DNA of 64,000 nucleotides from an uncultured cyanobacterium (GCA_963750795.1 CAVVRZ010000018.1:40245-104244), one strand, 5' to 3'. Shown: positions 20,427-48,094, numbered from the stretch's first letter. A program made the numbers and translations. Notes: generated from the letters alone by a model not told the origin.

Positions 20427-20482
20427 GGGCTTCGACTTCGCTCAGCCACCGTACACCGATGGCTGAGCGAAGTCAAAGCCTC
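20427..20482. mobile_element. MITE family 1 core copy
   Basis: gggcttcgacttcgctcagccaccgtacaccgatggctgagcgaagtcaaagcctc. Confidence 0.65.
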
Positions 20483-24008: not shown

Positions 24009-24125
24009 AATTCAAATAAGAAAATTAGGGCTTCGACGCTTCGACAAGCTCAGTGCATCGCTTCGCTCAGCCAGCAATATACGATGGCTGAGCGAAGTCG
24101 AAGCCTCTTGAATTTATTTGAAATT
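24009..24125. mobile_element. MITE family 1, long form
   Basis: aattcaaataagaaaattagggcttcgacgcttcgacaagctcagtgcatcgcttcgctcagcc...gtcgaagcctcttgaatttatttg. Confidence 0.75.
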
Positions 24126-28665: not shown

Positions 28666-29574
28666 TTAGTTAGAGCGGATTCTCGAAGGATTTTGATTAG
28701 AGACTTGACTCTCGTCAATGATCTGTTTAACTTGAGGCTGTGCCAAGATGACTTGGACATCGGCAATCAAGCGATCGCCCCAGAGATTTTCGATCAGATA
28801 GGGGATCTTGCCATAGCGTGGATCAATCTTCATCGCTTCGACTGCTAACTGCACACCCTTAGCGCGATCGCCTTTGCGATAAAAAGCCGTGGCGAGGGCA
28901 AGGGTTGGCTCAGCCGCCATAAACTCTACTTTTTCAGCTTGGGTAAGAGAGTTTTGCCATTTGTCGATCGCTTGATCGACATTGCCACGTTCATATTCGA
29001 CTAGACCAATGTTGTTGGTCGCTGCCCAAAACTTATCATCAAGGGTCAACACATCTTGATAGACGTTTACGGCTTCGTTGTAGCGTTTGGTCAAGAAATA
29101 GGCATTGGCAAGATCAAACATTGCTGTGGCAGACTTTGGTTCTAAGCTTAAGCCCTTTTGAATGTTGCTAATAGCTTCGGGATAGTTTTTGTTTCGCAAA
29201 TAGGCAGCACCCAACTCAAAAAGAATTCTTGGCTCATCTTTTTTGAGATTGTGGGCGATATTTAGAGAAGCGATCGCATCCTGATACTTTTCGGTACGCA
29301 GGTAAATGCTCCCGAGGATACCGTGGGTTTGGAAAGACTTTGGAGCCAACTGGGTGGCGAGGCGGGCGCGGGATAAGGCTAGATCATACTGCTCAAACTG
29401 AGCGCGTCTTGCCGCTTCGATAGATAGGCTCAACGCTTGTCTTTCTAGATTCTCAAATTTGATACGAGTTGTATGGGGAAATAGGGCTTGAGCATGGCTA
29501 GACGCAACTCCAATCCCTAGAGAGGATAGGGAGGTGATGAGGGCAATTAACCAAGACTTGTAACGCACAGGCAT
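28666..29574 (-). CDS. TPR-repeat protein with signal peptide
   Basis: Repeated A..Y...g.Y..Ai..y..al.l.P units along the whole ORF. Confidence 0.8.
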   Translation of the reverse strand: MPVRYKSWLIALITSLSSLGIGVASSHAQALFPHTTRIKFENLERQALSLSIEAARRAQFEQYDLALSRARLATQLAPKSFQTHGILGSIYLRTEKYQDAIASLNIAHNLKKDEPRILFELGAAYLRNKNYPEAISNIQKGLSLEPKSATAMFDLANAYFLTKRYNEAVNVYQDVLTLDDKFWAATNNIGLVEYERGNVDQAIDKWQNSLTQAEKVEFMAAEPTLALATAFYRKGDRAKGVQLAVEAMKIDPRYGKIPYLIENLWGDRLIADVQVILAQPQVKQIIDESQVSNQNPSRIRSN

Positions 29575-29750: not shown

Positions 29751-29866
29751 TTCCAAATAAATTCAAGAGGCTTCGACTTCGCTCAGCCATAGTATATTGC
29801 TGGCTGAGCGAAGCGATGCACTGAGCTTGTCGAAGCGTCGAAGCCCTATTTCTCTCATTTGAATTG
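29751..29866. mobile_element. MITE family 1, long form
   Basis: ttccaaataaattcaagaggcttcgac...aagcgatgcactgagcttgtcgaagcgtcgaagccctatttctctcatttgaattg. Confidence 0.75.
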
Positions 29867-30328: not shown

Positions 30329-30376
30329 CCCCAAAAGCAAAAAAACTCGCTAAGCGAGTTTTTTTTGCTTTTGGGG
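30329..30376. terminator. bidirectional hairpin between psb30 and the WD40 gene
   Basis: ccccaaaagcaaaaaaactcgc/gcgagttttttttgcttttgggg. Confidence 0.65.
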
Positions 30377-30403: not shown

Positions 30404-32617
30404 TCACTTAGTCTGATCGCAGCCAAGGGCAGGGACACGATTAGTTTTTTGACTGAGAATTTTCCCCTCAGCAGTTCCACTCAAGACCAAGATTTCTTTG
30501 GGGGTGAGATCAATATCAACAGCCGTAACGGGCGTATTAGAAGTGATCATAGTTTTGCCATTCAGTTCACCCGATGCCCTACGACCATTACTGGTTAATC
30601 CCCATAGCTTTACCTCACCATCGTCGCCACCGCTAACCAAATAACAACCTTGATTACTAAAAGCGATCGAGCGGACGGGTTTAGCCTTGTGAGCATCTTT
30701 CCATACTTCAACCAGTTGACAAGGCTGGCTCCCGACTTGACCGCTACTGTTGTTATTAGGTAAACAATTATTCAAGTTCCAGAGGGTGATGTAGCCTTGG
30801 TTGTCCGCAGTGGCGAGGAGATTGCGTTGGCGCTCGGGGACGCTGATACTTTGGATATAGTCGTCCTGTCCACCTGAGTTGGGATAGGTCAGAGTTTTGG
30901 TGGTGTCAGTAACCCAGTTCCAGAGGACTAGCTGGTTGTAACGCCCTGCGATCGCTAGGGTATTGTCATTATCATTGCCCACAAGAGCGATCGCATTGAT
31001 CGCAAAATCAAACTGCTTAGTTTGTCTAGGTTGCGTCGGCGGATTGGTAAATAAATTTTGTAAATCCCAACGCAGTAGTAAACCACTGCCATGACCGCTA
31101 AAGAGATTACGCGCATCAAGTGTATATTCCAGTCCAAAGACGCGATCGTCATTTTGATTACTAAAGGTCGCGATCGGGCGCTGGCTACCTTGGGTATTTA
31201 GGATTTGGATCTCACCATTTTCTAATCCTGCGGCGAGAAGATCATTATTAAAGGGGCGATAGCGGACGGTTCTAATGGCTTTTTGAGCTTCCGTCAATAC
31301 GCCTAGGTCATACTTCACAAACAGTGTGTGAAAACCTTCCACTTCCCAAGTGCGAATTGTGCGATCGTTAGAACTACTAACAGCGTGATTGCCAATGCCA
31401 TCGTACTGCACGGAGGTGACGGCTCCTTTGTGGGGTAAGAAAGGATTATTGGGATTAAATCCTAGCAATAACCCAAGAATAAACATCAAAATAAAGAAAA
31501 GAACTAATAACCACCAGATCGAAATAATTGGCTTAACAATCACTTCGATCGCTTGGATTTCATCTACGGTATTCACCCGCGTATCTTGCCAATTTGCCTT
31601 GATTAATAGCTCTAACTGCTGCTCTCTACCAAGCCAAGGTCTAGGCTTATCGATTTGCAAGATTAGTTCTGACTGACTAAAGGGGTTAACTGCTGACTCA
31701 TTGGGCAAAAACTCATAGCTAAAATCTTCAGTATTACTGGAATAGGCACTCTCTACTTCAAAACTAATCGTTTGATTTAAGTTACTAGCATTGACTGCCG
31801 TGAGATTAAAAATCGCAGGGGTATATCGCCAAAATTTCCACCATGTTTTCCACCAAGAGCGCCAAGGCTGTTGATTAGGAATAGTTTGTAGTTTTTCAGG
31901 ACAGCTAACCGACAACTCGCCTTTAGGTAATACTTCGAGATTGCACTGCAATTGCGAAGGCAGTCCATTGGTGTGGGAAACATTGATCGTAAAGGGATAG
32001 GTCTTAGCGATCGCCTCTTCATCAAAGGGTAGATTACATAAGAAGGAAGTACTAATCTGTGCGCCTGCTTTGAGCTGCAACTGTTGGATATGCCCATTGG
32101 GAAACCAAAATGGGGGCAAATCTACACAGGTGAGGGTGACATTAGTATTTTGTTGGCTAAGATTGCTGATTAAAACAGGGATTTCTAGATCATTAAGGGG
32201 GATTGCTTGTAGTTTTTGGGAAGGAACATTGACCTTGAGAATGGCACGGCTAGCTCCTTCCTGTAGGTTGACTCGCAAAATCTCCCGATTCTCTTCGCGT
32301 AGCTCCATCGAGAAGGCGCGTACCGTGATGTTCATGATGCCCATAAAACCAGCGATCGGTGGTTCAATGATCGAAACCATAAACTCCACCAGATCCCCTG
32401 GGGGAATCTTGACGCTGACATCGGGAGAGATCGTATACCATTCATAGGTAATGGCATCAGCATCAGCACCTGCGGCAATCAGCTCAATCTGAAAGCTAGA
32501 GAACTGATTACTCTCATTGACGACGATCACGGGAAAAGAATTACCCGCTTCACCAACTTTAAAATTTAACTCTTTCTTGGGGATTTCTAAACCAACATGA
32601 TTCGCGGGCATCGCCAT
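30404..32617 (-). CDS. membrane-anchored WD40-repeat protein (N-terminal Ig-like region, one TM helix, C-terminal beta-propeller)
   Basis: TM helix IISIWWLLVLFFILMFILGLLLGF at about aa 360. Downstream repeats include GHKGAVTSVQY..S.DRTIRTWEV and SGGDDGEVKLWGL. Starts 12 nt after the Cache-HAMP stop. Confidence 0.8.
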   Translation of the reverse strand: MAMPANHVGLEIPKKELNFKVGEAGNSFPVIVVNESNQFSSFQIELIAAGADADAITYEWYTISPDVSVKIPPGDLVEFMVSIIEPPIAGFMGIMNITVRAFSMELREENREILRVNLQEGASRAILKVNVPSQKLQAIPLNDLEIPVLISNLSQQNTNVTLTCVDLPPFWFPNGHIQQLQLKAGAQISTSFLCNLPFDEEAIAKTYPFTINVSHTNGLPSQLQCNLEVLPKGELSVSCPEKLQTIPNQQPWRSWWKTWWKFWRYTPAIFNLTAVNASNLNQTISFEVESAYSSNTEDFSYEFLPNESAVNPFSQSELILQIDKPRPWLGREQQLELLIKANWQDTRVNTVDEIQAIEVIVKPIISIWWLLVLFFILMFILGLLLGFNPNNPFLPHKGAVTSVQYDGIGNHAVSSSNDRTIRTWEVEGFHTLFVKYDLGVLTEAQKAIRTVRYRPFNNDLLAAGLENGEIQILNTQGSQRPIATFSNQNDDRVFGLEYTLDARNLFSGHGSGLLLRWDLQNLFTNPPTQPRQTKQFDFAINAIALVGNDNDNTLAIAGRYNQLVLWNWVTDTTKTLTYPNSGGQDDYIQSISVPERQRNLLATADNQGYITLWNLNNCLPNNNSSGQVGSQPCQLVEVWKDAHKAKPVRSIAFSNQGCYLVSGGDDGEVKLWGLTSNGRRASGELNGKTMITSNTPVTAVDIDLTPKEILVLSGTAEGKILSQKTNRVPALGCDQTK

Positions 32618-32629
32618 ATACTCCTGTAG

Positions 32630-34003
32630 TTATCTTTTCTCTCGCACAGCTCGTGAACGCTGCAAAATCAGTTGTAATGAGTTAGTTTGCCCCATTTGTG
32701 AAGCGATCGCTGCTTTTTTAGCCTCATCCTTCTCTAGGCGCAGCTTATGCAGTTGACTCAGCATTCCCTGTTGACGCTCGGCAATGGTATTACCCATTTC
32801 CTGAAAAACCCTTGCCATTTGTCCCAATTCATCTTGGCGAGTCGCAACATCCTGCAACTCTTCAGGATTAAAGGTTTCTTCCTCAATTTCTTTGGCGGCG
32901 TTCATTAGTTCTTTGATGGGCTTTAGTAACCATGAAGCGATCGCTAAGCCGATGATGATATTAACACCCAGCATAATGACGATGATGCCGATGGTTAGAC
33001 GGTTGTTTGCGTCAATTTCCTCCATAAAAACTGATTTTGGCACGATAATTCCCACCGACCAATCAGGCTGATCTTTATTGTCCAGTTTGTGGGTGCTTAC
33101 AAAGTAGGTTTCACCATTAGATTCAAATTCAAGAATTTGGGAATTTTCTAAATTCCCAAATCCACCAAACTTTTCTTGCACCAACTGTCCCACCTTCTGT
33201 AAGCGTGGATTGCCACTTTGAGACGCATCAAAGCGTTGTATGCTTTTACCATCTTTGAGAAATACAGGCTCATCGGCAGTGCTACCCACTAACTTCCCAT
33301 CGGATTCCACCAAAAATAAATGCCACTTATCTGTGGGGCGAATCTCCTGCATAAATTGCTTGATTTGCTTTAGAGAAATATTTACTCCCGCCACACCTTG
33401 AAATTCTCCCTTACTGTCGTAAATAGGAGTAGCTTTGGTAGTAGTCAGTTCGCCATCGGTGGTACTGACAAACACAGAAGTCCACACAGGCGCTCCTATC
33501 TCTTTTGCAGCTTTATACCAAGGGCGATCGCGATGGTCATAGATTTCATTCATTACAATTTTGCCACGTTCTCCCCGCTCATTTAGCTCGTAGGTCGGGC
33601 GGTTGGGCGCAGTAGTATTATCCCGAATTCGTAATAAAAGGCTAGAATCAGCAAGCCGATCAACCCCCACCATTGATCCATTTTTATTGCCAAAGAAGAG
33701 AATATTATTAACTTGAAGTTCTTGAGATTTGTTGAAAATATATTCCTGTACTTCGCTAATATTATCGGGGTTAATATTACCTTTATTCAGGGCAAAGGAT
33801 AGAGCTTGATTACTTTGAATAGAGCGATCAAGATAGGAACCTATTTGCTGTTCAACTCGATAATTTAGATTATCACAAAGTTGAGTAGTTAGCTTCTTAA
33901 TCGCTTTTTCGCTACTACTAAAGGAAATCCAACCTGTAACACCAACGGCAACGGCGATCTGAAGACTAAGAACTATGGGAAAGACTTGACGAATGGAAGA
34001 CAT
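32630..34003 (-). CDS. Cache-HAMP membrane sensor with no recognisable output domain
   Basis: N-terminal TM, dCache-like periplasmic region (WYKAAKE...PVWTSVFVS...TTTKATPIYD), second TM and HAMP (LLKPIKELMNAAKEI...LGQMARVFQEM). Only about 60 aa of coiled coil lie before the stop. Confidence 0.7.
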   Translation of the reverse strand: MSSIRQVFPIVLSLQIAVAVGVTGWISFSSSEKAIKKLTTQLCDNLNYRVEQQIGSYLDRSIQSNQALSFALNKGNINPDNISEVQEYIFNKSQELQVNNILFFGNKNGSMVGVDRLADSSLLLRIRDNTTAPNRPTYELNERGERGKIVMNEIYDHRDRPWYKAAKEIGAPVWTSVFVSTTDGELTTTKATPIYDSKGEFQGVAGVNISLKQIKQFMQEIRPTDKWHLFLVESDGKLVGSTADEPVFLKDGKSIQRFDASQSGNPRLQKVGQLVQEKFGGFGNLENSQILEFESNGETYFVSTHKLDNKDQPDWSVGIIVPKSVFMEEIDANNRLTIGIIVIMLGVNIIIGLAIASWLLKPIKELMNAAKEIEEETFNPEELQDVATRQDELGQMARVFQEMGNTIAERQQGMLSQLHKLRLEKDEAKKAAIASQMGQTNSLQLILQRSRAVREKR

Positions 34004-34026: not shown

Positions 34027-34113
34027 ATCAAATAAAGTTCTCTATCTCTTTCATAGCTTCGGCTACGCTCAGCCACCAATATACGATAGCTGAGCGCAGT
34101 CAAAGCCTCTAGA
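34027..34113. mobile_element. MITE family 1 remnant abutting or overlapping the stop codon of the 487-aa gene
   Basis: cttcggctacgctcagccaccaatatacgatagctgagcgcagtcaaagcctctag. Confidence 0.55.
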
Positions 34114-35572
34114 TATACATATTGGTAATACGACGCTGCTCCTTGATCGGTTGATCACTGTTACTTGTGTACTGGGGATTGACCTGCATGGCTTGCATAA
34201 TTCGATGACGTTGGGCGGCATAGTTAAGGATGTTGATGCCCAATTCTTGACAAGTGCGAATACATTCTCTAGTGAGTAAGCGATCGCTCTGACCAGCCCA
34301 AATCGAAGATAGATTGCCTAATACAGTGATCACTCCATTGCTAGTTAGTACTTGTAAAGGTTGTTCGGCAAAGATAGGTAGTTGATGGAATAAGAATGGT
34401 TGACTGCGGAGTGGATGATCGTGATTTAGTTCAGCAAAAGATCGCATTGCCTTAATTTCGGGGATTAAGCTACTTAAGGAGTTAGTGAGTTCTTGGCGAT
34501 ACATATTTAATTCGGCAGCGATCGCTTCCAGCTCTTCTAATAACTGAGCCTGAATGATATCGGATTCATTGCCATCGTTAAAAGAGATATCTCCATTGAG
34601 CTTATTGAGGTGATTCTTCGTGTTGGTTTGGAGTTTGTGATGAGCATTTTGAAGTTCGTCATAAATAGAAAGTAAACTTTCAACTCTAGTATTGGCGATC
34701 GCCACTTCGATCAACAATAAGCCACCTGCTTTAACATATCTTTGTAGAGCGTCTTGGGTATTGACAGTGAGGCTAGAAATTTGACTCTCTTGGATGTGAA
34801 TTAATTGGTAATTAATTAATTTCTCAATAGTCAAGTCATCATTAATACTTAGTTGATCAATGACCGAAATATTAGCAAGCTGTGGAGTCATGCTCGCTGT
34901 AGCCTGTCCCAAGAAATCAAAACTCCGAGAGATATTATGCTCACTCTGATCGCTAGTCTGGTTATTAACACAACAGGCGATCGCTAGATTATATTCAGGT
35001 CTTAGCTTGATCGATAGGCGATGGCGCAAATCCAATTGCGAAATTTGCGGATGGATGATGTCAGTCGGTTGTTGAATCGCTAACTGTCCTTCCGCGATCG
35101 CCACACGACATAATTCAATATCTGTATCTAGAGGTGGATCGGTTTTTTCATTGATCCTGAAGGTTTCCACCAATATCTCATTATGTTCTGAACGCTTCAA
35201 CTTCGCAGGATCAACATAGCTGAGAACTAAATAGACCGTATCAATCCGTTGCTCATAGGCTGCGGTCGAGATCCGAAAATCAAGAGGCGATGGCACGACA
35301 ATAAAATTGCCATGCACATCAATCGCAATCCCCGGCTGAATCTGTACCCAACGATCATCCCGAAATTTTGCAGGCATATCCATCGGCGCAGTTATTGGCG
35401 CGACTCCCAAGCCGCAGACGATCCCGGGAGAGAATAGAGATTGATAGAGAACGTTTTGACGTTGATGGTGATAAGCATGGGCAAGCTGCCAACGTTCGCT
35501 ATTGATCATCAAGCCATCGGAGACTTGTAGCCGCTCAAAGGATTGAATTTCAGGATCGGGAAAGTTTTTCAT
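34109..35572 (-). CDS. CIS-associated 487-aa protein: N-terminal baseplate/fibre-associated-like domain fused to a DUF4159-like C-terminal domain
   Basis: N-terminal LAHAYHHQRQNVLYQSLFSPGIVCGLGV...IQPGIAIDVHGNFIVV. C-terminal YVKAGGLLLIE...LGNLSSIWAG...CQELGINILNYAAQR. Confidence 0.5.
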   Translation of the reverse strand: MKNFPDPEIQSFERLQVSDGLMINSERWQLAHAYHHQRQNVLYQSLFSPGIVCGLGVAPITAPMDMPAKFRDDRWVQIQPGIAIDVHGNFIVVPSPLDFRISTAAYEQRIDTVYLVLSYVDPAKLKRSEHNEILVETFRINEKTDPPLDTDIELCRVAIAEGQLAIQQPTDIIHPQISQLDLRHRLSIKLRPEYNLAIACCVNNQTSDQSEHNISRSFDFLGQATASMTPQLANISVIDQLSINDDLTIEKLINYQLIHIQESQISSLTVNTQDALQRYVKAGGLLLIEVAIANTRVESLLSIYDELQNAHHKLQTNTKNHLNKLNGDISFNDGNESDIIQAQLLEELEAIAAELNMYRQELTNSLSSLIPEIKAMRSFAELNHDHPLRSQPFLFHQLPIFAEQPLQVLTSNGVITVLGNLSSIWAGQSDRLLTRECIRTCQELGINILNYAAQRHRIMQAMQVNPQYTSNSDQPIKEQRRITNMYI

Positions 35573-35629: not shown

Positions 35630-36742
35630 CTAAATAATTTCCAAATCATAGGTACAAAAAGCAGGCTTCTCCCGTTCAATAATTTGATGAATTAGATCGG
35701 TATTGATCATGCTCGGCAAATCATTGCGAATACGGACAATGAAATGAAAAGGTCTGCCGCCACCCGCCGAAGCATCAACGCCTAATTGAGCTTCATTTAA
35801 GATGAATCCTCTACCTGTCACCTCAAAAATATCAATATGCTTTTGTCCCTCTGGTAAATGCTCATCTAGGGGTAAACCCGTAAATAGGTGAATGTAAAAA
35901 CGTAATCCCCTGCGAGTACCGCGCCAACGATAGATCTGCATTGCCTGCTTAATCAAATAGCGCTGCCGTTTAACATCTAGCAATGGTGACATTTCCCAAC
36001 CGACCCAATGGGCGAGAAACGGTAACATCGTCTCAGGCGCTAAGATTGGGTCAACATATGCCCAGAGTGCGTTAAAAATCTGGACATCAGGCTCAAGGGA
36101 TTCTTCAAAAATCTTTAGCAGTCGCCCCACAAAGTCAACTTCTCGGAAAATATCAGGTAAAAACCCTAGATAAAGGCTATGGGGACGAATATAGAGATGA
36201 ATAGGAGCAATGTCCAATAGTTCTAATTTTACCATTGGTGTTAAGACCTCAGAACTAGCACTGTTGCTACCCTCAAGTTTTGGAGTAGGGGTATCGGTCG
36301 GATCTGCGTAACCTCCGTATATATGCAGATGACCGTGGTAATTGATGGTTAAGGCTTGATCATGGGCGATCGCTTCTTGATTTTCAAAGAAGTCTATCGG
36401 CACTTGAAAATAGAGAACGGCTTCCATTTCACCATAGGCAGGAATGCGATCGCCTTCCATCCCAATCCGACACCACTGATTAGGAAAATCACCTTCTAAG
36501 CGCAAGTTAACAACTAGCGGTCGGGCATTAGTATTTTTGATTTTAACGATAATTTCACTAGGATCTCCAGGATTGATCAAAAGCTGGCAGGAACTGGCAG
36601 CCACATCCAACTCGGCAATCCCTCCATTGTCCCGCTTGTCCTTAGCTTGCTCAGCACTATTCAGACTCTGATCGGAGACATTGGGAGCCTTCATGGAGAT
36701 CAGTTGAATGCTAAGAGCTTGTAGCTTACTTGGGGAGGGCAT
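35630..36742 (-). CDS. baseplate protein with phage P2 gpI-like (tail protein I) domain
   Basis: LPDIFREVDFVGRLLKIFEE...LAPETMLPFLAHWVGW...KRQRYLIKQAMQIYRWRGTRRGL is the Tail_P2_I pattern. Starts 6 nt after the upstream stop. Confidence 0.7.
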   Translation of the reverse strand: MPSPSKLQALSIQLISMKAPNVSDQSLNSAEQAKDKRDNGGIAELDVAASSCQLLINPGDPSEIIVKIKNTNARPLVVNLRLEGDFPNQWCRIGMEGDRIPAYGEMEAVLYFQVPIDFFENQEAIAHDQALTINYHGHLHIYGGYADPTDTPTPKLEGSNSASSEVLTPMVKLELLDIAPIHLYIRPHSLYLGFLPDIFREVDFVGRLLKIFEESLEPDVQIFNALWAYVDPILAPETMLPFLAHWVGWEMSPLLDVKRQRYLIKQAMQIYRWRGTRRGLRFYIHLFTGLPLDEHLPEGQKHIDIFEVTGRGFILNEAQLGVDASAGGGRPFHFIVRIRNDLPSMINTDLIHQIIEREKPAFCTYDLEII

Positions 36743-36748: not shown

Positions 36749-39004
36749 TTAGTTAACAATATTAATGACGTGGCTAGAACGTAGACGAGGACTGCGCCAA
36801 GAACAAATCAAACCCGATGTACCCGGGTCGATCACGGGTTGCGGAGCAAGTCGTCTCACCCACTGGTTATTTTCATAGCGCAATTCAAAAAGTTGAACTG
36901 TGCCTAAAAATCTAATGCCCTGTACACTTTGCAAAAGTTTAACGATATCCGAGGGATAGACAGGACGACCAAATTCCCAACCTTGACCTTGGATACCTCC
37001 CGTAATCGGATTGAGGAACCGATAGAGCATCACCTTGACCTGTTGGACGATCTCTTGTTGAACTTGCGGGTTGGTATAGGAAGGTTCGAGGTTAATCTCG
37101 GTCTGGACTGAGACTCCGACATACTGGGGTGATGCCAGTTGGATCTGCACTCCCAGCATTTTTCGCTCCTCCAAGTAGGTCAGGACTTTATTTGTCAGTT
37201 GCGGCGTAATCATTAGTTCATCGGGGTGGATGCCTTGACCTTGTTCTATACCTTCAGTGCGTACCTTCGGCACAATTAGTAATTTGACAATACCCGCATC
37301 TTCCTTTCGTTTTGCAGAAGAACAAAGCACCCGTGAGACATTGCCTTCCCCAGCAAGAAGGGTGAGATATTCAAAATCCGTTTGATTGACAGCGCGATCG
37401 CGGGTTTTTAAAATTTTAGGTACGCGCATCACCACGTCATCAAGGGACTCTGCATCTGTACCGTTGTAGGCAGAGACATGATTAATCAGACTTGCCACAT
37501 AGGGAATCGCACTTTTAGCAACTTGAATACTGCCCCGTTGAACATTGCCACGGAAGCCTCCGCCTGTGCGATATTTGACGATCTGGATCACTGCACCCCT
37601 AGGTGGTACGGCTCCGTACTGTGTGCCTGTCGTCGCCGCGTTACTGGCATTGACAAGATTAGCGCTATCAGCTTGATTGGCAAGAGTACCATTAGCGCCA
37701 ATACCATTGACGATCGCCCTCTGCATAGGGTCACCTTGTACCCGCATCCGTTGCAAAATATGCTGACTTTGGTAATTTGGCGATCGCACAAAGGGTCCAA
37801 ATTGAATCGTTCCCGAAGTGGAATCCAGAACATAGTGCAGATCGCTATCCGTAGATTCCGAAAAGTCCTCTACTTCATGCCAGATTTGCGGTAAACCAAC
37901 GGCAGGAATAACTAATACATATTCATCCGCTGCCCTTGGTAAAACTGGTCGGTTTTGCAATTGAAACAATTGTCCCGATGTGCCATCACTTTCCCCAACA
38001 ATCTCATTAGTCATTGTGGAGCATTGGGTGACTGTGACTGTGCCGCCAACGGATCTAACACTCATACCAATAATTTGGGGAGGATGACTGTAGCCAGATT
38101 GATTGTTCATCGGCTCAACATAACTACAGCGTAACCATCTGCCGCGATAGGTCGCAAATTGGACAACATTCCAATTTAGGGGTAAGTGTAAGATTACTTC
38201 TGCTCCCTGTGCGGGGTTAACCCCTTCTTCTGGTGAGGAACTAAAGCTAAATCCCCTTGTGTGATCGTCATTTTCCTTTAAAAGTACCGATTGCCATGCA
38301 TACCCATTCCAAGCCTCCCAAAATCGTGGTGGACTATTGGGATTGATCCCCGTGGTTGTTGCCGATGCACCTTTGAAGTTAATGGCGATCACATTGCCAT
38401 CGACGGGGCGATCTTCGGTAAAGACAATATAAAAGCAGTTGTTCGGTTCAGGAGGATCGCTGAATAGGGGAATTTCTTGCCCTGACCATTGCTCAATGTT
38501 GTCCTCTGTCCAAACATCTTGGAGTAAATCGCGAAAGGACTCAGGGCGATCGTCAGTTCTGGGAGCAGATAGTAAATGGGAAATTCGTGGCTTCGCAATT
38601 ACTAGGGGTTGATTGGTACTAAAGATAATTGCTTCTTCGTCTTCAGTACGGAGAGTCGCGATTTCACTATCCTTAGGAATTATATAGGTGTCAGGAAGAG
38701 AAGCAGTGAGATAGAAGGTAATATCTGTCTGGGCAGAAGTCGGTGGCTGTAAACGGATGCCCAGTAGTTCTAGAAAGGCAATGTAGTTACGGCGAGGAAC
38801 TTGATTAAACCGCATCAACATCTGATCGGTTAGCCAAGCAAATAGTTCAATTAGCGTAACGCCAGGGTCACTAGGATTATAGTTTGTCCATTCTGGACAA
38901 TAACGGGGAATTCTTAATAAACATTCATTTACTAATTCCGCAAAAGTGCGATCGTCAAGATCTGATTTTGGCAAATTAGGAAGAAAATCAAACTCTCTCG
39001 TCAT
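36749..39004 (-). CDS. baseplate J / gp6-like putative baseplate assembly protein (Afp11-like)
   Basis: N-terminal RTFAELVNECLLRIPRYCPEWTNYNPSDPGVTLIELFAWLTDQMLMRFNQVP matches eCIS baseplate assembly proteins. 751 aa. Confidence 0.75.
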   Translation of the reverse strand: MTREFDFLPNLPKSDLDDRTFAELVNECLLRIPRYCPEWTNYNPSDPGVTLIELFAWLTDQMLMRFNQVPRRNYIAFLELLGIRLQPPTSAQTDITFYLTASLPDTYIIPKDSEIATLRTEDEEAIIFSTNQPLVIAKPRISHLLSAPRTDDRPESFRDLLQDVWTEDNIEQWSGQEIPLFSDPPEPNNCFYIVFTEDRPVDGNVIAINFKGASATTTGINPNSPPRFWEAWNGYAWQSVLLKENDDHTRGFSFSSSPEEGVNPAQGAEVILHLPLNWNVVQFATYRGRWLRCSYVEPMNNQSGYSHPPQIIGMSVRSVGGTVTVTQCSTMTNEIVGESDGTSGQLFQLQNRPVLPRAADEYVLVIPAVGLPQIWHEVEDFSESTDSDLHYVLDSTSGTIQFGPFVRSPNYQSQHILQRMRVQGDPMQRAIVNGIGANGTLANQADSANLVNASNAATTGTQYGAVPPRGAVIQIVKYRTGGGFRGNVQRGSIQVAKSAIPYVASLINHVSAYNGTDAESLDDVVMRVPKILKTRDRAVNQTDFEYLTLLAGEGNVSRVLCSSAKRKEDAGIVKLLIVPKVRTEGIEQGQGIHPDELMITPQLTNKVLTYLEERKMLGVQIQLASPQYVGVSVQTEINLEPSYTNPQVQQEIVQQVKVMLYRFLNPITGGIQGQGWEFGRPVYPSDIVKLLQSVQGIRFLGTVQLFELRYENNQWVRRLAPQPVIDPGTSGLICSWRSPRLRSSHVINIVN

Positions 39005-39249
39005 TGCTGAATGCTCTGCTCGTTGCTTGGGTTTGAATAGTGATGCTGACTATAATCGAATTCTACTGGTTAGCGTCTTACTTTGTTACTGAAATACTAA
39101 ATTATTTAACCTAAATGACTACATTTGTCGAAAATATCGCAAACCATCAATAAGCGATCGCTATTTTCTACAGCAAAAGAAGCTTTTGGAGGTTTAGTTT
39201 GTACCAATAGCTCTTGCTTTGCCATATTTCAACATCAGTTCAATGAAAT

Positions 39250-39292
39250 CTCAAAGTGGTGAGAATCACAGAGCGATTTTCACCACTTTGAG
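39250..39292 (-). terminator. 13-bp stem hairpin between the tube/chaperone module and the baseplate module (terminator or attenuator)
   Basis: ctcaaagtggtga (17-nt loop) tcaccactttgag. On the minus strand it is followed by ATTT. Confidence 0.4.
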
Positions 39293-39324
39293 GCATTTGC
39301 ATAGAATTTTCCAATCCATAGAGT

Positions 39325-39642
39325 CTATTCAGTATTTACTTCCCAAGCCGTATCACCCAAATCATTAATCTGGCGATAAAACTTTTGCAAATAATTTAAG
39401 TCAGTGGCAAACATATTTTCGACGATCATTGTGCTGACCTCCTCCAGACCACCCAGCTTCGTAATTACCCTTGACAGGATTACTACCGTGGCATAGGCAG
39501 GATTTGCCCTCACCCTTGGATCGCGCATGGGAGTAATCTCATCGATCGCCCTAGACAAACGCATCACACCCTTACGATGTACATTGCCATCGCTATCGAC
39601 ATAGCCCTTAGGCAAAGTAAATTCAAACTGAGTTTGAATCAT
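39325..39642 (-). CDS. small phage-tail-associated protein, gpE-like tail assembly chaperone candidate
   Basis: 105 aa located 17 nt downstream of the third tube gene. FTLPKGYVDSDGNVHRKGVMRLSRAIDEI resembles tail assembly chaperone N-termini. Weak call. Confidence 0.4.
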   Translation of the reverse strand: MIQTQFEFTLPKGYVDSDGNVHRKGVMRLSRAIDEITPMRDPRVRANPAYATVVILSRVITKLGGLEEVSTMIVENMFATDLNYLQKFYRQINDLGDTAWEVNTE

Positions 39643-39659
39643 TGATCTCTATTTAATCC

Positions 39660-40157
39660 TTACTTAATCCTGAGAAAGTCTGTAACACTCAATTCTATTT
39701 CGATTACCGCAAATTCGCCAGTACCAGCCTTAAAGTCCGACAACTTATACCGAACGGGCCAAGCACCATTAAAGCGGAATCTTGCTTTTTCCGTTGCTGC
39801 TTGATCGTAAATAGTAATATCGCCATCACGCATTTGTTTTGACCAATTACCATCCTCGACTGCCTTTAGCCAATCCCAAAGGGTCATAGAAATCGTCAAA
39901 CCCTGCCGCAACACAATATTTTCACTCTTAACATTTCCCGGCAGCTTAGTACGTATAACACGCCCTTTACTAGAGTTGCTTCTACCCCATACTTGGGGAG
40001 TTACTTCCATAATCTCAATTACTTCTTGACTGCGGGTCAAGCCACTACATTCCATAAAGTAGCCATCAACCTGCTCTGTACTACCTTGTAAGGTAATCTC
40101 TATGTAAAAGCGGGAATTAGTTAAATATTCAAGTTGAGTGGCGCTGGCTGTCATCAC
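39660..40157 (-). CDS. phage tail tube-family protein (T4 gp19-like; tube initiator/Afp5-like candidate)
   Basis: SRFYIEI...GYFMECSGL...E...LPG..K..NIVLRQG...LWDW pattern of the gp19 family. Confidence 0.7.
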   Translation of the reverse strand: MMTASATQLEYLTNSRFYIEITLQGSTEQVDGYFMECSGLTRSQEVIEIMEVTPQVWGRSNSSKGRVIRTKLPGNVKSENIVLRQGLTISMTLWDWLKAVEDGNWSKQMRDGDITIYDQAATEKARFRFNGAWPVRYKLSDFKAGTGEFAVIEIELSVTDFLRIK

Positions 40158-40221
40158 AATTACCTTTATTTTTTGAAGTTAGGATATGAGAATCTTGGCT
40201 TCTCATATCCTAACTTCATGA

Positions 40222-40698
40222 CTACACCGCAACGCGATGCAAAGATTCATATACAAACTCAACAGTTTCTGTAGCAAGTCCCTCTGCACCTGCCTCTAGC
40301 TTGATGGATTTGTAACTAGATGGCATCATTCCCTTTACTTCCCATCTGGCGGCTTCTTCTCCGCCCTGATTGTAAAGACTAATTTTACCTGTGCGACGTA
40401 CACCCTTAGTTTTGGAACCTCCTCCGCCCAAAGGCTCAGTATGGGAGTCGCTGTACCATTGCATTAGCCTTTCATCCCCAGCTGTACAAACAAACTCCAC
40501 AGTAAGTTTGCCATTGGTGACACCTGTAACTGTAGCTTGGATTACAGATTTGGCAGCTTTAGAGACCCCATAGGATTTACTATCCCCTGCTGTTTGCAGA
40601 GTAGTACTAATGCCGCCAACACTTTTGATAATCAAATCAGCCAGTTGATCGATCTCAAAATAATACTTAGAACAGGCTAAAACTTCGCCAGCTGCCAT
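40222..40698 (-). CDS. phage tail tube protein (inner tube paralog 2)
   Basis: SKYYFEIDQL...IKSVGGIS. C-terminal ETVEFVYESLHRV parallels paralog 1. Confidence 0.7.
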   Translation of the reverse strand: MAAGEVLACSKYYFEIDQLADLIIKSVGGISTTLQTAGDSKSYGVSKAAKSVIQATVTGVTNGKLTVEFVCTAGDERLMQWYSDSHTEPLGGGGSKTKGVRRTGKISLYNQGGEEAARWEVKGMMPSSYKSIKLEAGAEGLATETVEFVYESLHRVAV

Positions 40699-40887
40699 AA
40701 TTGATTGACCTCAGAAATATTGATAGTAATACGTTAAGTTACGTATCTAATGAACCCAGATGCTTATACTAATTCACGAAAGTGTGTCAGCACTTTTGCA
40801 AGTTAAAAGACAAGCTTAGTAAAGCATTGACTAAAGACGAAATGTCTATGTCTCTATGTCACTAAAAGATAAAATTATCCTCTAGTG

Positions 40888-41361
40888 TTATACAGGGACG
40901 CGGTTAATCTGCTCAGCAATAATTTCAAATGTCTCGACTGCCAAATCTTTACTCTCAGAGTTAAAATCACTAACTTTGTAGCTTTTGATCCAGCAATTGA
41001 CGAGATTCCATCGGATTGCTTCTTTGTCTTCACTGGTGTAGGCGACGATGGAACCTGCTTTACGCCTTTGAGACCATAGCCCTTTGCCACCTTCACTCTT
41101 GGGCATAGTGTCCAACATCCAATTGTAAAAAGACATATCATCGGTTACATACACTTCGATAGTAACGTTGGGGTTCTCTTCAAAACCTGATGATGTACTT
41201 TGCCAAAGGGTTTTTCCACCTTTAGTAGAAGCAAGGGGCTTTTCATGCCCTGCTGTTTGTCCTGAGAAACTAACCTCAGATACACTCTTGATGAGTTTCT
41301 CTTCTAATCCCTCAAATGATACATAGTATCGACTAGTTGGAATTGGTATAAGTTCAGCCAT
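40888..41361 (-). CDS. phage tail tube protein (inner tube paralog 1, Afp1-like)
   Basis: SRYYVSFEGLEEKLIKSVSEVS...AVETFEIIAEQINRV. Located directly downstream of the sheath gene. Confidence 0.75.
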   Translation of the reverse strand: MAELIPIPTSRYYVSFEGLEEKLIKSVSEVSFSGQTAGHEKPLASTKGGKTLWQSTSSGFEENPNVTIEVYVTDDMSFYNWMLDTMPKSEGGKGLWSQRRKAGSIVAYTSEDKEAIRWNLVNCWIKSYKVSDFNSESKDLAVETFEIIAEQINRVPV

Positions 41362-41568
41362 TTTTTCTCCTTAAATTATAAGTTTTATGGGATTGTTTGA
41401 TTGGCTTTGGATTAGCTACTGCTGTTAAGCGATCGCATAGTTGCTTATTTTAAGAGATAAGACTGTAGGTCTAGATTTAGAACACCACAAATCTTAAGAA
41501 AGTGATAGGTTCCTTAAGAGAAAGGGTTTGAGAATCTTTTGATCCTCAAACCCTTAATGATAAGTCAA

Positions 41569-43284
41569 CTAGCTATTGGGAGACCACTGACTGACGCGGA
41601 AGATTACAAATTCCGCAGGACGGACGGGGCAGATACCAACTTCGATATATAAACGACCCATCATCATAGTTTCGTTAGTATTCAAAGTAGCGTCACACTT
41701 GACATAGAAGGCTTCAGTACTTGCGCCACCAAATAAAGCACCGTTGCGCCATAGTCCTTCGAGGAAGTTGCTGACGGTACGACTAACTCTTGCCCAGAGG
41801 TCGGTGTCATTGGGTTCAAAGACGACCCACTGCGTACCGATTTCAATGGACTTCTCAATGTAGCTAATTAAGCGGCGAACGCTGATATAACGCCATTGAA
41901 TGTTGTCTGGCTCAACGAGGGTGCGTGCGCCCCATACTTTGAAGCCGCGATTGTAGCTGGCAAAGTTACGGATGCAGTTAATGCCGATGGGGTTGAGCAG
42001 TTCTTGCTCACGCATATTGGTTTCGTAAGCGAGTCCAATCACACCTCTAGGGGTATCATTAGCTGGCGCTTTGAAAATGCCTCGGCTTTGGTCAGTGCGA
42101 CACCAGAGACCCATGACATGACCACAGGGTGGAACGTAGGAAGGTTTGCCACCTTTGCGGGGATTGGGAACCTTGATCCAAGGATAGTAAAGAGCGCCAT
42201 ACATGGAACGGCGGTTAAACATACTCAACCATTGGGCGACATCTTGAGGCTTTTGGCGATCGGGGCTGACGGCTTCCATACCCTTAGAAGGCTTAATTGG
42301 AGGCGGATCAATTACTGCCATCCGAAATGCAGGACCGGGGAAGGAGTTTTCGCACATACTGAGCATCATTTCCATGACTCCATGCACTTGATCGATGTCG
42401 ATCAGACCTGCTTCGTAGACACGCATCAAGTCTGGGCAAGCAATCATCGCAGTTTCGTCAATTTCAAACATCCCTTGGATGCCTGTGCGATCATCTCTTT
42501 GTCCTAGGAGATCACGGGAGAATCGCTCAATCGATGAAATATATGGAGGTGGAGCAATTTCGTAGGAGCCATTGGCGGGACGACGCGAGAGAGGCTGTCC
42601 ATTGGTGGAGATATCGGCAATGGTGATGTATTCTGAATCGGCGATCGCAGTAACCACATAGTCGGCAACTTCCGTCGCAACTTCGGGGTTCATCGATACA
42701 TATTCATATTTTTCTAATTCTTCACCGTCACGAGTCACGATCACGGTAAAGAATTCACCTGTATTTAAAGGCTCTTCAGCATCTTCAGGCGCATCTTCAG
42801 CTAGGGGCTTGGGAGTGCTTTCGCGGATTAAAACTTTAATGCGATCGCTACCACTACTGCTTGCCAATGCTAGTTGGCTTTCCGCAGCGTCAGCAGGCTT
42901 GATGTTAAACATCAAAGAAGGGCGATTGCTGGAAGTACCAATCCGCAAAGCTGTGGCTTCGGGAGGAGGTGGTGGAGACCCTGGTAATTGTGTGCCAATG
43001 CTAGTTACCCAACAGCGTCCACCACCATTGACGAACCAACCACTGACAGCAAAAGGCAAGTAAGCATCAAAATCTGTATATCCATCAGAACCGGGTGCGG
43101 CGAAATATTCACGGTATTGATCCCATGAAGTTACCATCATCGGTTTGAATAGCTCAGCATCACCACGTACATCTTCGGTGAAACCCACGAAACCCGCCAC
43201 ACTCATGCTGATGCCTTCGATGGGACGACTGCCTCTGTCAACCTCTTCGACGTACACACCCGGGGCGAAGTAGTCTAGTGCCAT
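41569..43284 (-). CDS. contractile tail sheath protein
   Basis: N-terminus MALDYFAPGVYVEEVDRGSRPIEG and C-terminal region YYPWIKV...FKAPAND...GINCIRNF...GFKVWGARTL are canonical sheath motifs. ATG at 43284 is preferred over 43314. Confidence 0.9.
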   Translation of the reverse strand: MALDYFAPGVYVEEVDRGSRPIEGISMSVAGFVGFTEDVRGDAELFKPMMVTSWDQYREYFAAPGSDGYTDFDAYLPFAVSGWFVNGGGRCWVTSIGTQLPGSPPPPPEATALRIGTSSNRPSLMFNIKPADAAESQLALASSSGSDRIKVLIRESTPKPLAEDAPEDAEEPLNTGEFFTVIVTRDGEELEKYEYVSMNPEVATEVADYVVTAIADSEYITIADISTNGQPLSRRPANGSYEIAPPPYISSIERFSRDLLGQRDDRTGIQGMFEIDETAMIACPDLMRVYEAGLIDIDQVHGVMEMMLSMCENSFPGPAFRMAVIDPPPIKPSKGMEAVSPDRQKPQDVAQWLSMFNRRSMYGALYYPWIKVPNPRKGGKPSYVPPCGHVMGLWCRTDQSRGIFKAPANDTPRGVIGLAYETNMREQELLNPIGINCIRNFASYNRGFKVWGARTLVEPDNIQWRYISVRRLISYIEKSIEIGTQWVVFEPNDTDLWARVSRTVSNFLEGLWRNGALFGGASTEAFYVKCDATLNTNETMMMGRLYIEVGICPVRPAEFVIFRVSQWSPNS

Positions 43285-43491
43285 ATGCCACCCTTTAACT
43301 ATGTCTATAGGCATATAGATTAGGTAAGATTAGTTAGAAGGGTTATTAGACTTTAGTCTATACTTCGATTAAAATCTAATTGCTAAAAAACGCTCAAGGT
43401 TAAGTCAAGTTTAAATACTAAGAATTAATTAAAAAAATGTTAACAAATGCAAACAATTACGGTCTATTGAGATTTTAAGTAGTAAACAGAG

Positions 43492-43681: not shown

Positions 43682-44392
43682 ATGACGACAACAACTCAAA
43701 TAGTGTCGGTTTTGTTGGTAGAAAATGATCATAATTTTCGGAGGGGCTTACATACTTTATTAGGGTTTTATAGTGATGATTGCTATTTGCAGTTTAAGAT
43801 TGTTGGCGAGGCGACCTGTAGTGATCAAGCACTTAAATTAGTCCTCGAGCAGAAGCCCACTCTCATTCTTTTAGATGTGCAGTTGGATGTGCAGTTACCC
43901 CAAGATAGTGGATTCAAAGTATTAATGGATCTCAAAAAATTGGACTATCATGGCAAGGTGTTGATTTTATCAACACACCGTGATGACGAGTTGATTTTTC
44001 GGGCGATGCAGCTAGGGGCTAGGGGTTATGTGACTAAGGAAAAGATTGGAAGTCAACTCTATGAAGCAATTTCAACGGTGATGAATGAGGAAATATTTTT
44101 ACCTCCTGACATTGCTACTAGTTTTTTTCGGATTTTCCACTTCTATGCAGGGCGATCGCTACAATGTCAAAATCAAAGTCAAAATCAAATTCACTTGACC
44201 GATCGCGAACATGAAGTCTTACATTGGTTGATCAAAGGAGCTTCCAATGAACAGATTTCTGGGTATCTCCATGTGACGATCGCCACAGTCAAAGCCCATT
44301 TAACCAGTGTATTTGAGAAGTTGGGCGTAGTTAGCCGCACTCAGGCAATTGTGAAAGCATTGAAATTAGGTTTAGTTAATACCGATGAGTAG
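43682..44392 (+). CDS. NarL/LuxR-family response regulator (REC + LuxR HTH)
   Basis: VLLVENDH...LILLD...VLILSTH...YVTKE REC motifs. LTDREHEVLHWLIKGASNEQISGYLHVTIATVKAHLTSVFEKLGV is the LuxR HTH. Confidence 0.85.
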   Translation: MTTTTQIVSVLLVENDHNFRRGLHTLLGFYSDDCYLQFKIVGEATCSDQALKLVLEQKPTLILLDVQLDVQLPQDSGFKVLMDLKKLDYHGKVLILSTHRDDELIFRAMQLGARGYVTKEKIGSQLYEAISTVMNEEIFLPPDIATSFFRIFHFYAGRSLQCQNQSQNQIHLTDREHEVLHWLIKGASNEQISGYLHVTIATVKAHLTSVFEKLGVVSRTQAIVKALKLGLVNTDE

Positions 44393-48086: not shown

Positions 48087-48094
48087 ATACTTAG

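Follow-up and report, generated by a model that had tools for sequence, protein, structure and literature searches.

The DNA analyzed here is a 64,000-nucleotide stretch from an uncultured cyanobacterium (referred to as the window). It carries genes of a contractile (CIS) apparatus and, as the initial annotation had placed them, a sensor gene and a WD40 gene at the 3' end of the string of baseplate genes. The features are as follows, with subfeatures of each protein listed below its gene.

44408-45685, plus strand: Pvc16_N cap protein, divergent from the sheath gene (Pfam)
43682-44392, plus strand: LuxR-type response regulator, divergent from the sheath gene (Pfam)
41569-43314, minus strand: sheath (Pfam, PHROG; PDB 8bky/9gtp, E 6.8e-106)
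39660-41361, minus strand: three tube paralogues (Pfam, PHROG)
39325-39642, minus strand: tail-assembly-chaperone-like gene (Pfam, PHROG)
39005-39324, minus strand: spacer of 320 nt between the tail-chaperone-like gene and Cis11, containing a hairpin of 13 bp and, at 39089-39060, a promoter-like site (pattern matches only)
36749-39004, minus strand: Cis11-like baseplate wedge (Baseplate_J, Pfam; PDB 9gtp_1K, Streptomyces CISSc Cis11, E 5.8e-111)
35630-36742, minus strand: Cis12-like wedge, 370 aa (Tail_P2_I / TIGR02242; Pfam, NCBIfam; PDB 9gtp_E, E 5.4e-7)
34109-35572, minus strand: p487, soluble adaptor at the Cis13 or tail-fibre position (NCBIfam, Pfam, AF2)
34027-34113, no strand assigned: one copy of a dispersed ~90-nt hairpin repeat, in the p487/sensor spacer, arms at 34056-34073 and 34089-34106
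32630-34003, minus strand: output-less sensor gene, 457 aa (ORF call, Pfam, hydropathy)
33920-33976: sensor TM1, aa 10-28 (hydropathy)
33047-33865: sensor dCache_1, aa 47-319 (Pfam PF02743)
32936-32992: sensor TM2, aa 338-356 (hydropathy)
32783-32941: sensor HAMP, aa 355-407 (Pfam PF00672)
32633-32782: sensor conserved tail, aa 408-457 (50 aa)
32618-32629, minus strand: sensor/WD40 spacer CTACAGGAGTAT, 12 nt, preceded by the TAA stop of the sensor gene, containing AGGAG and followed by ATG at 32617
30404-32617, minus strand: bitopic Ig-TM-WD40 gene, 737 aa (ORF call, AF2, Foldseek, Pfam)
31535-32596: three Ig-like domains, aa 8-361 (beta-sandwiches aa 8-119, 127-246 and 268-361; AF2)
31457-31519: TM helix of the WD40 protein, aa 367-387 (AF2)
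30440-31420: 7-bladed WD40 propeller, aa 400-726 (AF2, Foldseek)
30339-30365, either strand: terminator-like hairpin ~40 nt past the WD40 stop, flanked by A- and T-runs (consensus scan only)

Sheath, tube, Cis11 (Baseplate_J), Cis12 (P2_I) and cap (Pvc16_N) genes are all present in the window, and the pair of LuxR-type regulator and Pvc16_N cap also adjoins the sheath gene in another locus (L098). Genes for gp25, VgrG and PAAR were not detected in the 64-kb window by tblastn with the proteins of locus L001 as queries; they were found in L001, L085, L091 and other loci. The spacer ahead of Cis11 may be the start of a separate transcription unit running from Cis11 to the WD40 gene, and the hairpin that follows the WD40 stop is probably the end of a transcription unit.

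By sequence, the CIS in the window is nearest to the cytoplasmic CIS of Streptomyces, whose sheath and Cis11 give the closest matches. An intracellular or thylakoid-attached CIS had initially been considered. In the thylakoid CIS of Anabaena (tCIS), Cis12 carries an extension (~1100 aa), Cis13 reaches into the thylakoid membrane with a C-terminal TM helix and Cis19 forms a crown (PMC8894136); the apparatus here is not of this type. Cis12 here has no such extension, p487 has no TM segment, and membrane insertion would be left to separate proteins; Cis19 was not found here, and the sheath matches Anabaena All3325 in its C-terminal domain only (E 2e-45). The tCIS remains a useful comparison as a cyanobacterial, intracellular CIS that is anchored via proteins at the tail-fibre position, and the N-terminal part of p487 fits the CIS13 family profile.

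The first gene of the pair encodes a protein with the TM-Cache-TM-HAMP architecture first described for it and no output domain. Its dCache_1 domain (88.6 bits, cut-off 45, E 6e-25) is flanked by two TM segments and HAMP directly follows TM2 (31.8 bits, cut-off 25, E 1.9e-7), which places the protein among the dCache_1-HAMP sensors; MCP-like_PDC_1 was matched as well. Beyond these domains, no other Pfam family was detected at E<=0.1. HisKA plus HATPase_c, MCPsignal, Guanylate_cyc, GGDEF/EAL and SpoIIE were absent in Pfam and NCBIfam at this threshold, and the NCBIfam kinase and phosphodiesterase matches were confined to the Cache/TM/HAMP part. The input half is the same as in transmembrane dCache-HAMP histidine kinases, MCPs, cyclases and SpoIIE/RsbU-type phosphatases, but the enzymatic or MCP signaling domain is replaced by a conserved tail. 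A short tail between HAMP and the stop had been noted with a length of about 60 aa; it is present, but comprises 50 aa.

This tail is still conserved in orthologues that are 24-33% identical to the sensor. A tail HMM gave 38 matches at E<1e-5, every one in Ig-TM-WD40 loci, and none in ~75 other Cache-HAMP loci. Four sensor variants occur (dCache-HAMP, dCache-HAMP-cNMP, Tll0287-like-HAMP and Tll0287-like-HAMP-cNMP), some orthologues carrying a C-terminal cNMP-binding domain, and all four have the HAMP-tail part in common. The sensory domain is swapped between loci, while HAMP and tail do not vary and mark Ig-TM-WD40 loci specifically; Tll0287-like-HAMP sensors share the tail, which occurs only beside Ig-TM-WD40 genes.

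The second gene encodes the Ig-like repeats, single TM helix and C-terminal WD40 propeller that had been proposed for it. The AlphaFold2 model, with 93 homologues as input, has a mean pLDDT of 92.6. The best PDB match in Foldseek is a 7-bladed WD40 protein (7big, E 3e-19, target-normalised TM-score 0.88), and the Pfam WD40 score (PF00400) is 62.8 bits, with a cut-off of 27, which makes this a WD40 propeller. The Ig-like fold is backed by FixG_C matches in 24 of 34 family members, and Ig domain 2 is homologous to the N-terminal Ig-like domain of Cis12 (hhalign probability 94%, E 1.2e-7). The family comprises 212 representative clusters, nearly all of 700-800 aa. Two cysteines bounding a loop of 4-48 aa are nearly invariant (Cys618 in 91/93 and Cys633 in 90/93 sequences). 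The protein has no signal peptide, and K+R counts in the flanks of its TM helix (1.5 vs 1.46) make the positive-inside rule uninformative.

As first reported, the WD40 ORF begins 12 nt after the sensor stop. The AGGAG in the spacer is Shine-Dalgarno-like and lies 5 nt ahead of the WD40 ATG. The corresponding spacers elsewhere measure 12 nt (L003), 3 nt (L014), 30 nt (L005) and 122 nt (L001).

Upstream of the sensor gene, p487 begins with a helix, which is followed by a beta 'shoulder' domain and then by an alpha/beta domain of GATase1/ThuA-like type (DUF4159 in Pfam; AF2 pLDDT 80.5) with an inserted helical hairpin at aa 296-367. Residues 26-120 match positions 18-101 of CIS13_fam (NCBIfam NF053767; Anabaena All3316) with E 2.7e-9 and 36.8 bits; this is a match of the N-terminal part only, and no full-length match reached the family cut-off of 370. 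In BFVD, p487 matched receptor-binding proteins (RBP shoulder domains) and tail fibres with E down to 8e-5. Foldseek matches to TssK were weak (5y0e, probability 0.85, E 0.027; 5m30; 6n38; TM-scores ~0.2), as were those to ThuA-like proteins. No hydrophobic stretch of p487 reached the hydropathy threshold for a TM segment, and no PDB sequence match to the chains of 7b5h was obtained. The N-terminal domain is predicted to have the fold by which phage RBPs and TssK attach to baseplates, and the distal part a GATase1-like fold with the helical hairpin.

The element between p487 and the sensor, initially called a MITE remnant, is real and belongs to a dispersed hairpin repeat: its 19-mer has 8 matches in the 64-kb window, against 0.01 expected by chance. 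Because p487 and the sensor are separated by only 39 nt in L001, the repeat must have inserted in this genome. The hairpin has no T-run directly after it on the sense strand. Short assembled metatranscriptome contigs of low depth fall on all three genes with 97-100% identity, and none of them spans an intergenic spacer.

The initial annotation had set co-occurrence with CIS loci as a check, and the linkage held. CIS genes are present in 45 of 49 non-redundant Ig-TM-WD40 loci (clusters at 90% identity, all retrieved with the WD40 or Cache query, so that the set covers loci with the module), and in none of the ~75 other Cache-HAMP loci. Among representative loci with enough flanking sequence, Cis11 and Cis12 lie within 8.5 kb in 25/37; with enough upstream sequence, p487 is upstream of the WD40 gene in 40/45 and a HAMP sensor directly upstream of it in 26/45. 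The order Cis11 - Cis12 - p487 - sensor - Ig-TM-WD40 is found in Pseudanabaena and Spirulina, in a MAG of an unclassified member of the Cyanophyceae and in numerous metagenomic contigs (L001, L003, L004, L005 and L014 among the loci), and a short Trichocoleus contig (L035) holds p487 - sensor - Ig-TM-WD40 only. Since the sensor is missing from ~40% of representative loci, it is not essential: it is an optional element, and the constant core consists of p487 and the Ig-TM-WD40 protein. The sensor/WD40 pair, judged from these data, is an intact and conserved accessory part of a module appended to the CIS wedge genes Cis11 and Cis12 in filamentous cyanobacteria. In a search of the literature, we found no description of such a sensor plus Ig-TM-WD40 module.

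We consider it rather likely that the sensor and the Ig-TM-WD40 protein form a signal-responsive complex for membrane docking or triggering of the CIS. An anchor or trigger role had been suggested at the outset; the CIS linkage supports the suggestion, and the role itself is one that we infer. Because the WD40 protein has a single internal TM helix and no signal peptide, its Ig-like domains would be cytoplasmic and its propeller would lie in the periplasm or thylakoid lumen, and an outer-compartment propeller is supported by the two near-invariant cysteines at the base of a loop of variable length. The topology of HAMP proteins is established, and by it the dCache domain of the sensor would share the outer compartment with the propeller, with the HAMP-tail part in the cytoplasm. 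The cytoplasmic Ig domains, together with p487, could then dock the baseplate to the membrane. A ligand at the Cache domain would alter the conformation of the HAMP-tail part, and docking would change or a baseplate trigger be released. In other lineages, the input may be a heme or redox signal at the Tll0287-like domain, or a cNMP. The sensor had also been proposed to signal through contact with the WD40 protein: partnership is supported by the 26/45 adjacency, by the HAMP-tail part being retained when the sensory domain is swapped and by two loci (L103 and L120) that keep the pair without nearby CIS genes, which argues for the two being partners in their own right, and they may be in physical contact.

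Such docking would resemble the action of CisA in Streptomyces, and that of TssK with the T6SS membrane complex. CisA (SCO4242) of Streptomyces coelicolor is a bitopic protein whose N-terminus is cytoplasmic and whose C-terminal domain is extracytoplasmic; its gene lies just downstream of CISSc's baseplate genes, and firing depends on it (PMC12237407). Like the module here (25/37 loci), CisA is encoded directly after the baseplate genes, where tail-fibre genes usually lie, and it comes from the CIS lineage that provides the nearest solved relatives of the window's sheath and Cis11. However, the N-terminus of CisA is largely disordered and its C-terminal domain resembles periplasmic substrate-binding domains (PMC12237407), whereas the protein here has three folded Ig-like domains and a WD40 propeller; CisA has neither a partner HAMP sensor nor an RBP-like adaptor, both of which occur here. 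The likeness, set apart by these published domain descriptions, would thus be one of analogy and not of family membership.

In T6SS, TssK acts with TssJLM as an RBP-shoulder-type adaptor that joins the wedges to integral membrane proteins, and p487 is weakly TssK-like, its matches to N-terminal domains of phage RBPs being clear ones. Homologues of TssJ, TssL and TssM are absent here, the distal domain of p487 is GATase1-like, and the membrane partners are the Ig-TM-propeller protein and the HAMP sensor. A further comparison is the TagQRST-PpkA-Fha1 pathway of Pseudomonas aeruginosa, in which threonine phosphorylation, through kinase and phosphatase signaling, triggers assembly of H1-T6SS. As is proposed for the module here, a contractile machine is under post-translational control by a sensor module in the envelope; unlike that pathway, the module here has no kinase.

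An alternative is that what the module controls is not docking or firing but how the CIS is produced or assembled, for example by sequestering or releasing a transcription factor, such as the LuxR-type regulator, or an assembly factor upon an envelope signal. The conserved position of this regulator next to the sheath and cap genes, the classical signal-input domains of the sensors and the fusion of one family member (L087) to a receiver domain are all in line with this, but kinase, phosphatase and DNA-binding parts are lacking in the sensor. Moreover, the tail-fibre position of the module, the RBP-like p487 beside it and the Ig domain held in common with the wedge protein Cis12 suggest structural association with the baseplate, and we regard control of production as unlikely.

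It is also conceivable, but distinctly improbable, that p487 and the Ig-TM-WD40 protein substitute for tail fibres in target recognition by an extracellular or exposed CIS, the propeller binding a target-cell surface after lysis of the producer, along the lines proposed for Anabaena ghost cells. WD40 propellers do serve as binding platforms, the genes lie where tail-fibre genes are expected, the p487 fold resembles phage receptor-binding proteins, and tCIS is exposed on Anabaena ghost cells (PMC8894136). A central TM helix and a co-encoded transmembrane HAMP sensor, however, suit a complex integral to the producer's own membrane, and the closest relatives of the sheath and Cis11 belong to the cytoplasmic, fibre-less CISSc.

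A third alternative, that the pair is an independent envelope signaling unit that accompanies CIS genes through genomic linkage only, appears very improbable. L103 and L120 carry the pair although the 10 kb to each side are free of CIS genes, L087 and L116 are family members outside CIS loci in two-component context with receiver domain fusions, and the repeat insertion in the window separates the pair from p487. Against this, the order beside the baseplate genes is kept across lineages whose sensors are just 24-33% identical, CIS genes accompany 45/49 loci, the tail signature is restricted to Ig-TM-WD40 loci, and an Ig domain is common to Cis12 and the WD40 protein.

Finally, it is scarcely credible that the Cache-HAMP gene is what remains of a kinase, cyclase or phosphatase gene that lost its 3' part, a check also set beforehand: its nearest output-bearing paralogues, Pseudanabaena Cache-HAMP-SpoIIE proteins (P0070-P0072), are 50-53% identical to it but differ in the TM2/HAMP segment, and such an identity is contradicted by the constant length of the output-less form (454-463 aa in ~65 orthologue clusters at 52-91% identity) and by the tail, which is kept in these clusters, in distant orthologues and across sensor types. 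As a separate observation on the composition of the module, most lineages outside Pseudanabaena add to it a paralogous Ig-TM protein, whose ectodomain is a different one.

The genes downstream of the contractile injection system (CIS) baseplate in this cyanobacterial contig are best read as encoding a putative CIS membrane adaptor of a hitherto undescribed, sensor-coupled kind. The genes concerned are as follows.

30404-32617, (-) strand: WD40 protein, 737 aa, from the ORF listing
32630-34003, (-) strand: sensor, 457 aa, from the ORF listing, adjoining the WD40 gene
34109-35572, (-) strand: p487, a 487-aa protein, upstream of the sensor gene
35630-36742, (-) strand: Cis12-like protein (Tail_P2_I), upstream of the p487 gene
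36749-39004, (-) strand: Cis11-like protein (Baseplate_J), upstream of the Cis12-like gene
43682-44392, (+) strand: LuxR-type response regulator, divergent, between the sheath and Pvc16_N cap genes
44408-45685, (+) strand: Pvc16_N cap protein, divergent, with an extra TIG/IPT Ig-like domain

In the sensor, Pfam identified dCache_1 (aa 47-319, E 6e-25), MCP-like_PDC_1 and HAMP (aa 355-407), with no further domain at E<=0.1, and hydropathy placed TM segments at aa 10-28 and 338-356. Matches to NCBIfam kinases, phosphatases and a phosphodiesterase were confined to the Cache/TM/HAMP part. The output-less TM-Cache-TM-HAMP architecture read in the initial annotation is thus borne out; the tail, put there at about 60 aa, has 50 residues after HAMP. 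Sensor topology is deduced from HAMP, whose placement on the cytoplasmic side of TM2 is well established. Homologues fell into ~65 clusters (52-91% identity), all named members being Pseudanabaena; nearly all are 454-463 aa long and none carries an output domain. The post-HAMP tail, which ends in a basic motif, is conserved in the alignment. Constant length and the conserved tail rule out a truncated pseudogene, so that the check for a 3'-truncated kinase or cyclase left the sensor as an intact gene. The nearest output-bearing paralogues, Cache-HAMP-SpoIIE proteins at 50-53% identity, have the Cache domain in common with the sensor and differ in the TM2/HAMP segment. PHROGs gave the sensor a single match, of unknown function, over the part from the Cache C-terminus through TM2 to HAMP.

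The WD40 gene follows closely: the sensor stop codon TAA is succeeded by CTACAGGAGTAT and then by the ATG of the WD40 gene, which confirms the 12-nt spacer noted earlier. An AlphaFold2 model of the WD40 protein, built on 93 homologues (mean pLDDT 92.6), has beta-sandwich domains at aa 8-119, 127-246 and 268-361, a TM helix at aa 367-387 and a propeller at aa 400-726. Foldseek matched it to 7-bladed WD40 proteins, and the Pfam family FixG_C, an Ig-like fold, was detected in 24 of 34 family members; model, Foldseek and Pfam therefore agree with the Ig-like repeats, one TM helix and C-terminal propeller originally proposed. A search of PDB sequences with the Ig-domain profile gave nothing meaningful, and no PADLOC or PHROGs model matched the Ig-like region. 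The absence of a signal peptide and the single central TM helix imply a predicted topology with the N-terminus inside and the propeller outside; the positive-inside rule was uninformative for this helix. Cys618 occurs in 91 and Cys633 in 90 of the 93 sequences, with a loop of 4-48 residues between them; an oxidising compartment and a putative disulfide bond would suit this pattern. The family defined by the N-terminal Ig-like region comprises 212 representative clusters, nearly all of 700-800 aa, as determined by exhaustive representative search; a word-indexed search with the N-terminal 398 aa returned 4 proteins and missed obvious orthologues.

The third protein, p487, contains a DUF4159 domain (Pfam) and no TM segment by hydropathy. 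Its N-terminal part matches the NCBIfam CIS13 family at E 2.7e-9, a score that falls well short of the family cut-off, and in BFVD resembles phage receptor-binding and tail-fibre proteins (18 matches at E<=1e-3). The AlphaFold2 model (pLDDT 80.5, pTM 0.80) consists of a helix, a beta domain and an alpha/beta domain with an inserted helical hairpin; against PDB structures it gave a weak TssK match (probability 0.85) and ThuA/GATase1-like folds. Neither p487 nor its profile found anything meaningful among PDB sequences, and no PADLOC or PHROGs model matched it. The family comprises 625 clusters, and all its named members are from filamentous cyanobacteria. The N-terminal, Ig-like part of the neighboring Cis12 (aa 9-133) and Ig domain 2 of the WD40 protein are homologous (hhalign probability 94%, E 1.2e-7).

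The order Cis11 - Cis12 - p487 - sensor - Ig-TM-WD40 is repeated in P. minima (L001), a 52%-identity relative (L003), an unclassified Cyanophyceae MAG (L005) and Spirulina subsalsa (L014), and a short Trichocoleus contig (L035) retains p487 - sensor - Ig-TM-WD40. Identity to the window sensor is as low as 24-33% in L005, L014 and L035. In L035 (1412-2005), the p487 and WD40 genes are separated by two sensor genes, one for a short HAMP-tail protein (197 aa), the other for a dCache protein (463 aa). A genome scan with the Cache-HAMP alignment listed mostly unrelated Cache proteins with generic dCache patterns; ~75 other Cache-HAMP loci among the matches listed served as a negative control set, and none had CIS genes. 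A metagenome scan with a 6-sequence alignment added 57 loci, and annotation with family profiles and de-replication at 90% identity left 49 clusters. CIS genes were present in 45 of these 49. The p487 gene lay upstream in 40 of the 45 clusters with enough upstream sequence, Cis11 and Cis12 within 8.5 kb in 25 of 37, and a HAMP sensor directly upstream in 26 of 45 (elsewhere in the cluster in one more). These counts, from loci retrieved with the WD40 or Cache query and set against the control loci, tie the pair to CIS loci as the co-occurrence check had asked. The exceptions were L103 and L120, which have sensor and WD40 protein and are free of CIS genes over 10 kb in each direction, and L087 and L116, where the WD40 protein is fused to a receiver domain in a two-component context. 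In the latter two (L087, 7456-10587), HisKA and Response_reg precede the Ig-TM-WD40 architecture in a 1043-aa variant that adjoins a stand-alone receiver gene, away from CIS genes.

A paralogous protein with one TM helix, designated Ig-big, is encoded directly downstream in 23 of 36 clusters (L005, L014, L085, L101, L107, L121 and others). This family (~800-1190 aa) has an N-terminal Ig-like region as in the WD40 protein and a different, unannotated C-terminal ectodomain; it is often succeeded by a ~600-aa TPR protein, and is absent from the Pseudanabaena clade and the window. A TPR gene at 28666-29574, downstream in the window, has matches among the TPR proteins that accompany the clusters of other lineages; it was left out of the module, TPR-to-TPR matches being generic and Pseudanabaena relatives having no TPR gene at that position.

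The sensors are of four types: dCache-HAMP; dCache-HAMP-cNMP_binding (639-641 aa; L005, L014, L126); Tll0287-like-HAMP (L085, L103, L120); and Tll0287-like-HAMP-cNMP (L111, L113). HAMP and the ~50-aa tail are alignable across all of them, and a profile built from post-HAMP residues alone, on which tail specificity rests, gave 38 matches at E<1e-5, all in Ig-TM-WD40 loci (best match elsewhere, E 2.9e-4), so that the constant part of the sensors is the HAMP-tail, on the predicted cytoplasmic side. Judged from sequence, it would behave like a transmitter addressing a conserved partner. In two further loci (L145, 8632-11452, and L015) there is a Cache-HAMP protein, 26-29% identical, that likewise has no output domain and shows the tail only in weak form. 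Its upstream partner is a conserved ~451-aa protein without a Pfam match, and the context is non-cyanobacterial (L015 is an Anaerolineales MAG) and without CIS genes; this may be another sensor family acting through a partner protein.

As to the type of machine, an Anabaena-like thylakoid-anchored CIS (tCIS) was rejected: the nearest solved relative of the sheath and of Cis11 by sequence is the cytoplasmic CIS of Streptomyces coelicolor (8bky, E 6.8e-106, and 9gtp, E 5.8e-111, respectively), and the Anabaena tCIS sheath matches the window sheath in its C-terminal domain only (E 2e-45). In the Anabaena tCIS, membrane contact is also made by Cis12 and Cis13 themselves (PMC8894136). The likeness is to CisA, a bitopic protein needed for firing whose gene has the corresponding position in the closest CIS so far characterised; no other adaptor has been described for the cytoplasmic type, and CisA has no known signal (PMC12237407). 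Chloroflexota relatives are without close cisA homologues (PMC12998442). No account of the module was found in the full-text literature on CIS with WD40, HAMP or DUF4159, nor is it mentioned in a 2026 catalogue of eCIS fibre domains.

We tentatively propose a ligand-gated CIS, a reading we hold to be possible rather than probable, in which chemoreceptor-like HAMP sensors, whose inputs can be exchanged (dCache, heme-PAS-like Tll0287, cNMP), act directly, with no enzymatic relay, on a bitopic Ig-TM-propeller adaptor and an RBP/TssK-like connector, docking an intracellular, phage-tail-like machine to a membrane and releasing its trigger. In the mechanism we think more likely, that of a signal-responsive complex for membrane docking or triggering, p487 would bind the wedge much as TssK or a tail fibre does; the HAMP-tail and the cytoplasmic Ig domains would meet p487 and Cis12 at the baseplate periphery; the Cache domain and propeller would face the periplasm or thylakoid lumen; and a ligand-driven HAMP rearrangement might alter docking or free the trigger. 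TssK and the T6SS membrane complex offer a parallel to docking by p487 and membrane proteins. The earlier suggestion that the sensor may signal by contact with the WD40 protein, and that the pair could be an anchor or trigger for the contractile apparatus, is supported in its main lines by the CIS linkage and the constant tail; the contacts and function we infer.

This cyanobacterial lineage offers, at the CisA position, a candidate adaptor together with a membrane protein and with sensors whose ligand-binding domains can be recognised. The cue by which cytoplasmic and thylakoid-type CIS dock to a membrane and fire thereby becomes directly testable, the handles being the dCache ligand, the Tll0287-like redox input and cNMP. 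The output of this HAMP sensor family appears to be protein-protein contact, not an enzyme. The module also bears on stress-induced lysis in filamentous cyanobacteria that form blooms and mats. If true, the ligand-gated reading would in these filamentous organisms tie small-molecule sensing, directly and physically, to firing of the CIS or to programmed lysis of the cell.

Within the window, a tail-chaperone-like gene, three tube genes and the sheath gene lie on the same strand beyond a 320-nt spacer upstream of Cis11. No gp25, VgrG or PAAR homologues were found in the 64 kb, nor a kinase near the LuxR-type regulator; L098 has the same sheath - LuxR regulator - Pvc16_N cap arrangement. In relatives (cf. 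L098, L001), initiator tube, VgrG, PAAR and gp25 genes precede Cis11; none of them lies in the window, where the sheath/tube/chaperone block abuts Cis11 directly (36749-43314), which suggests that a rearrangement split the cluster. The junction (39005-39324) contains a 13-bp hairpin and a promoter-like site.

One copy of a ~90-nt dispersed hairpin repeat lies in the 105-nt spacer between the p487 and sensor genes, in agreement with the MITE remnant reported between the pair and the baseplate genes. Repeats of this family (4367-4417, 20429-20479, 24086-24104, 29770-29788, 34056-34106 and 52905-52923, all intergenic) have the core GGCTGAGCGAAGTCGAAGC, in many cases as two inverted copies with a T-run after them; a 24-nt insertion is present in one variant. 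Short freshwater metatranscriptome contigs matched the p487, sensor and WD40 genes at 97-100% identity; none spanning a spacer, sought as a sign of co-transcription, was found. A hairpin flanked by A and T runs lies 3' of the WD40 gene and is terminator-like on either strand. Finally, 47685-50325 (-), within the lowest-GC stretch of the window (0.356), encodes an HNH nuclease matching PtuB (Septu) defence models close to a DUF6119 protein, and could represent a small island of defence or mobile genes.
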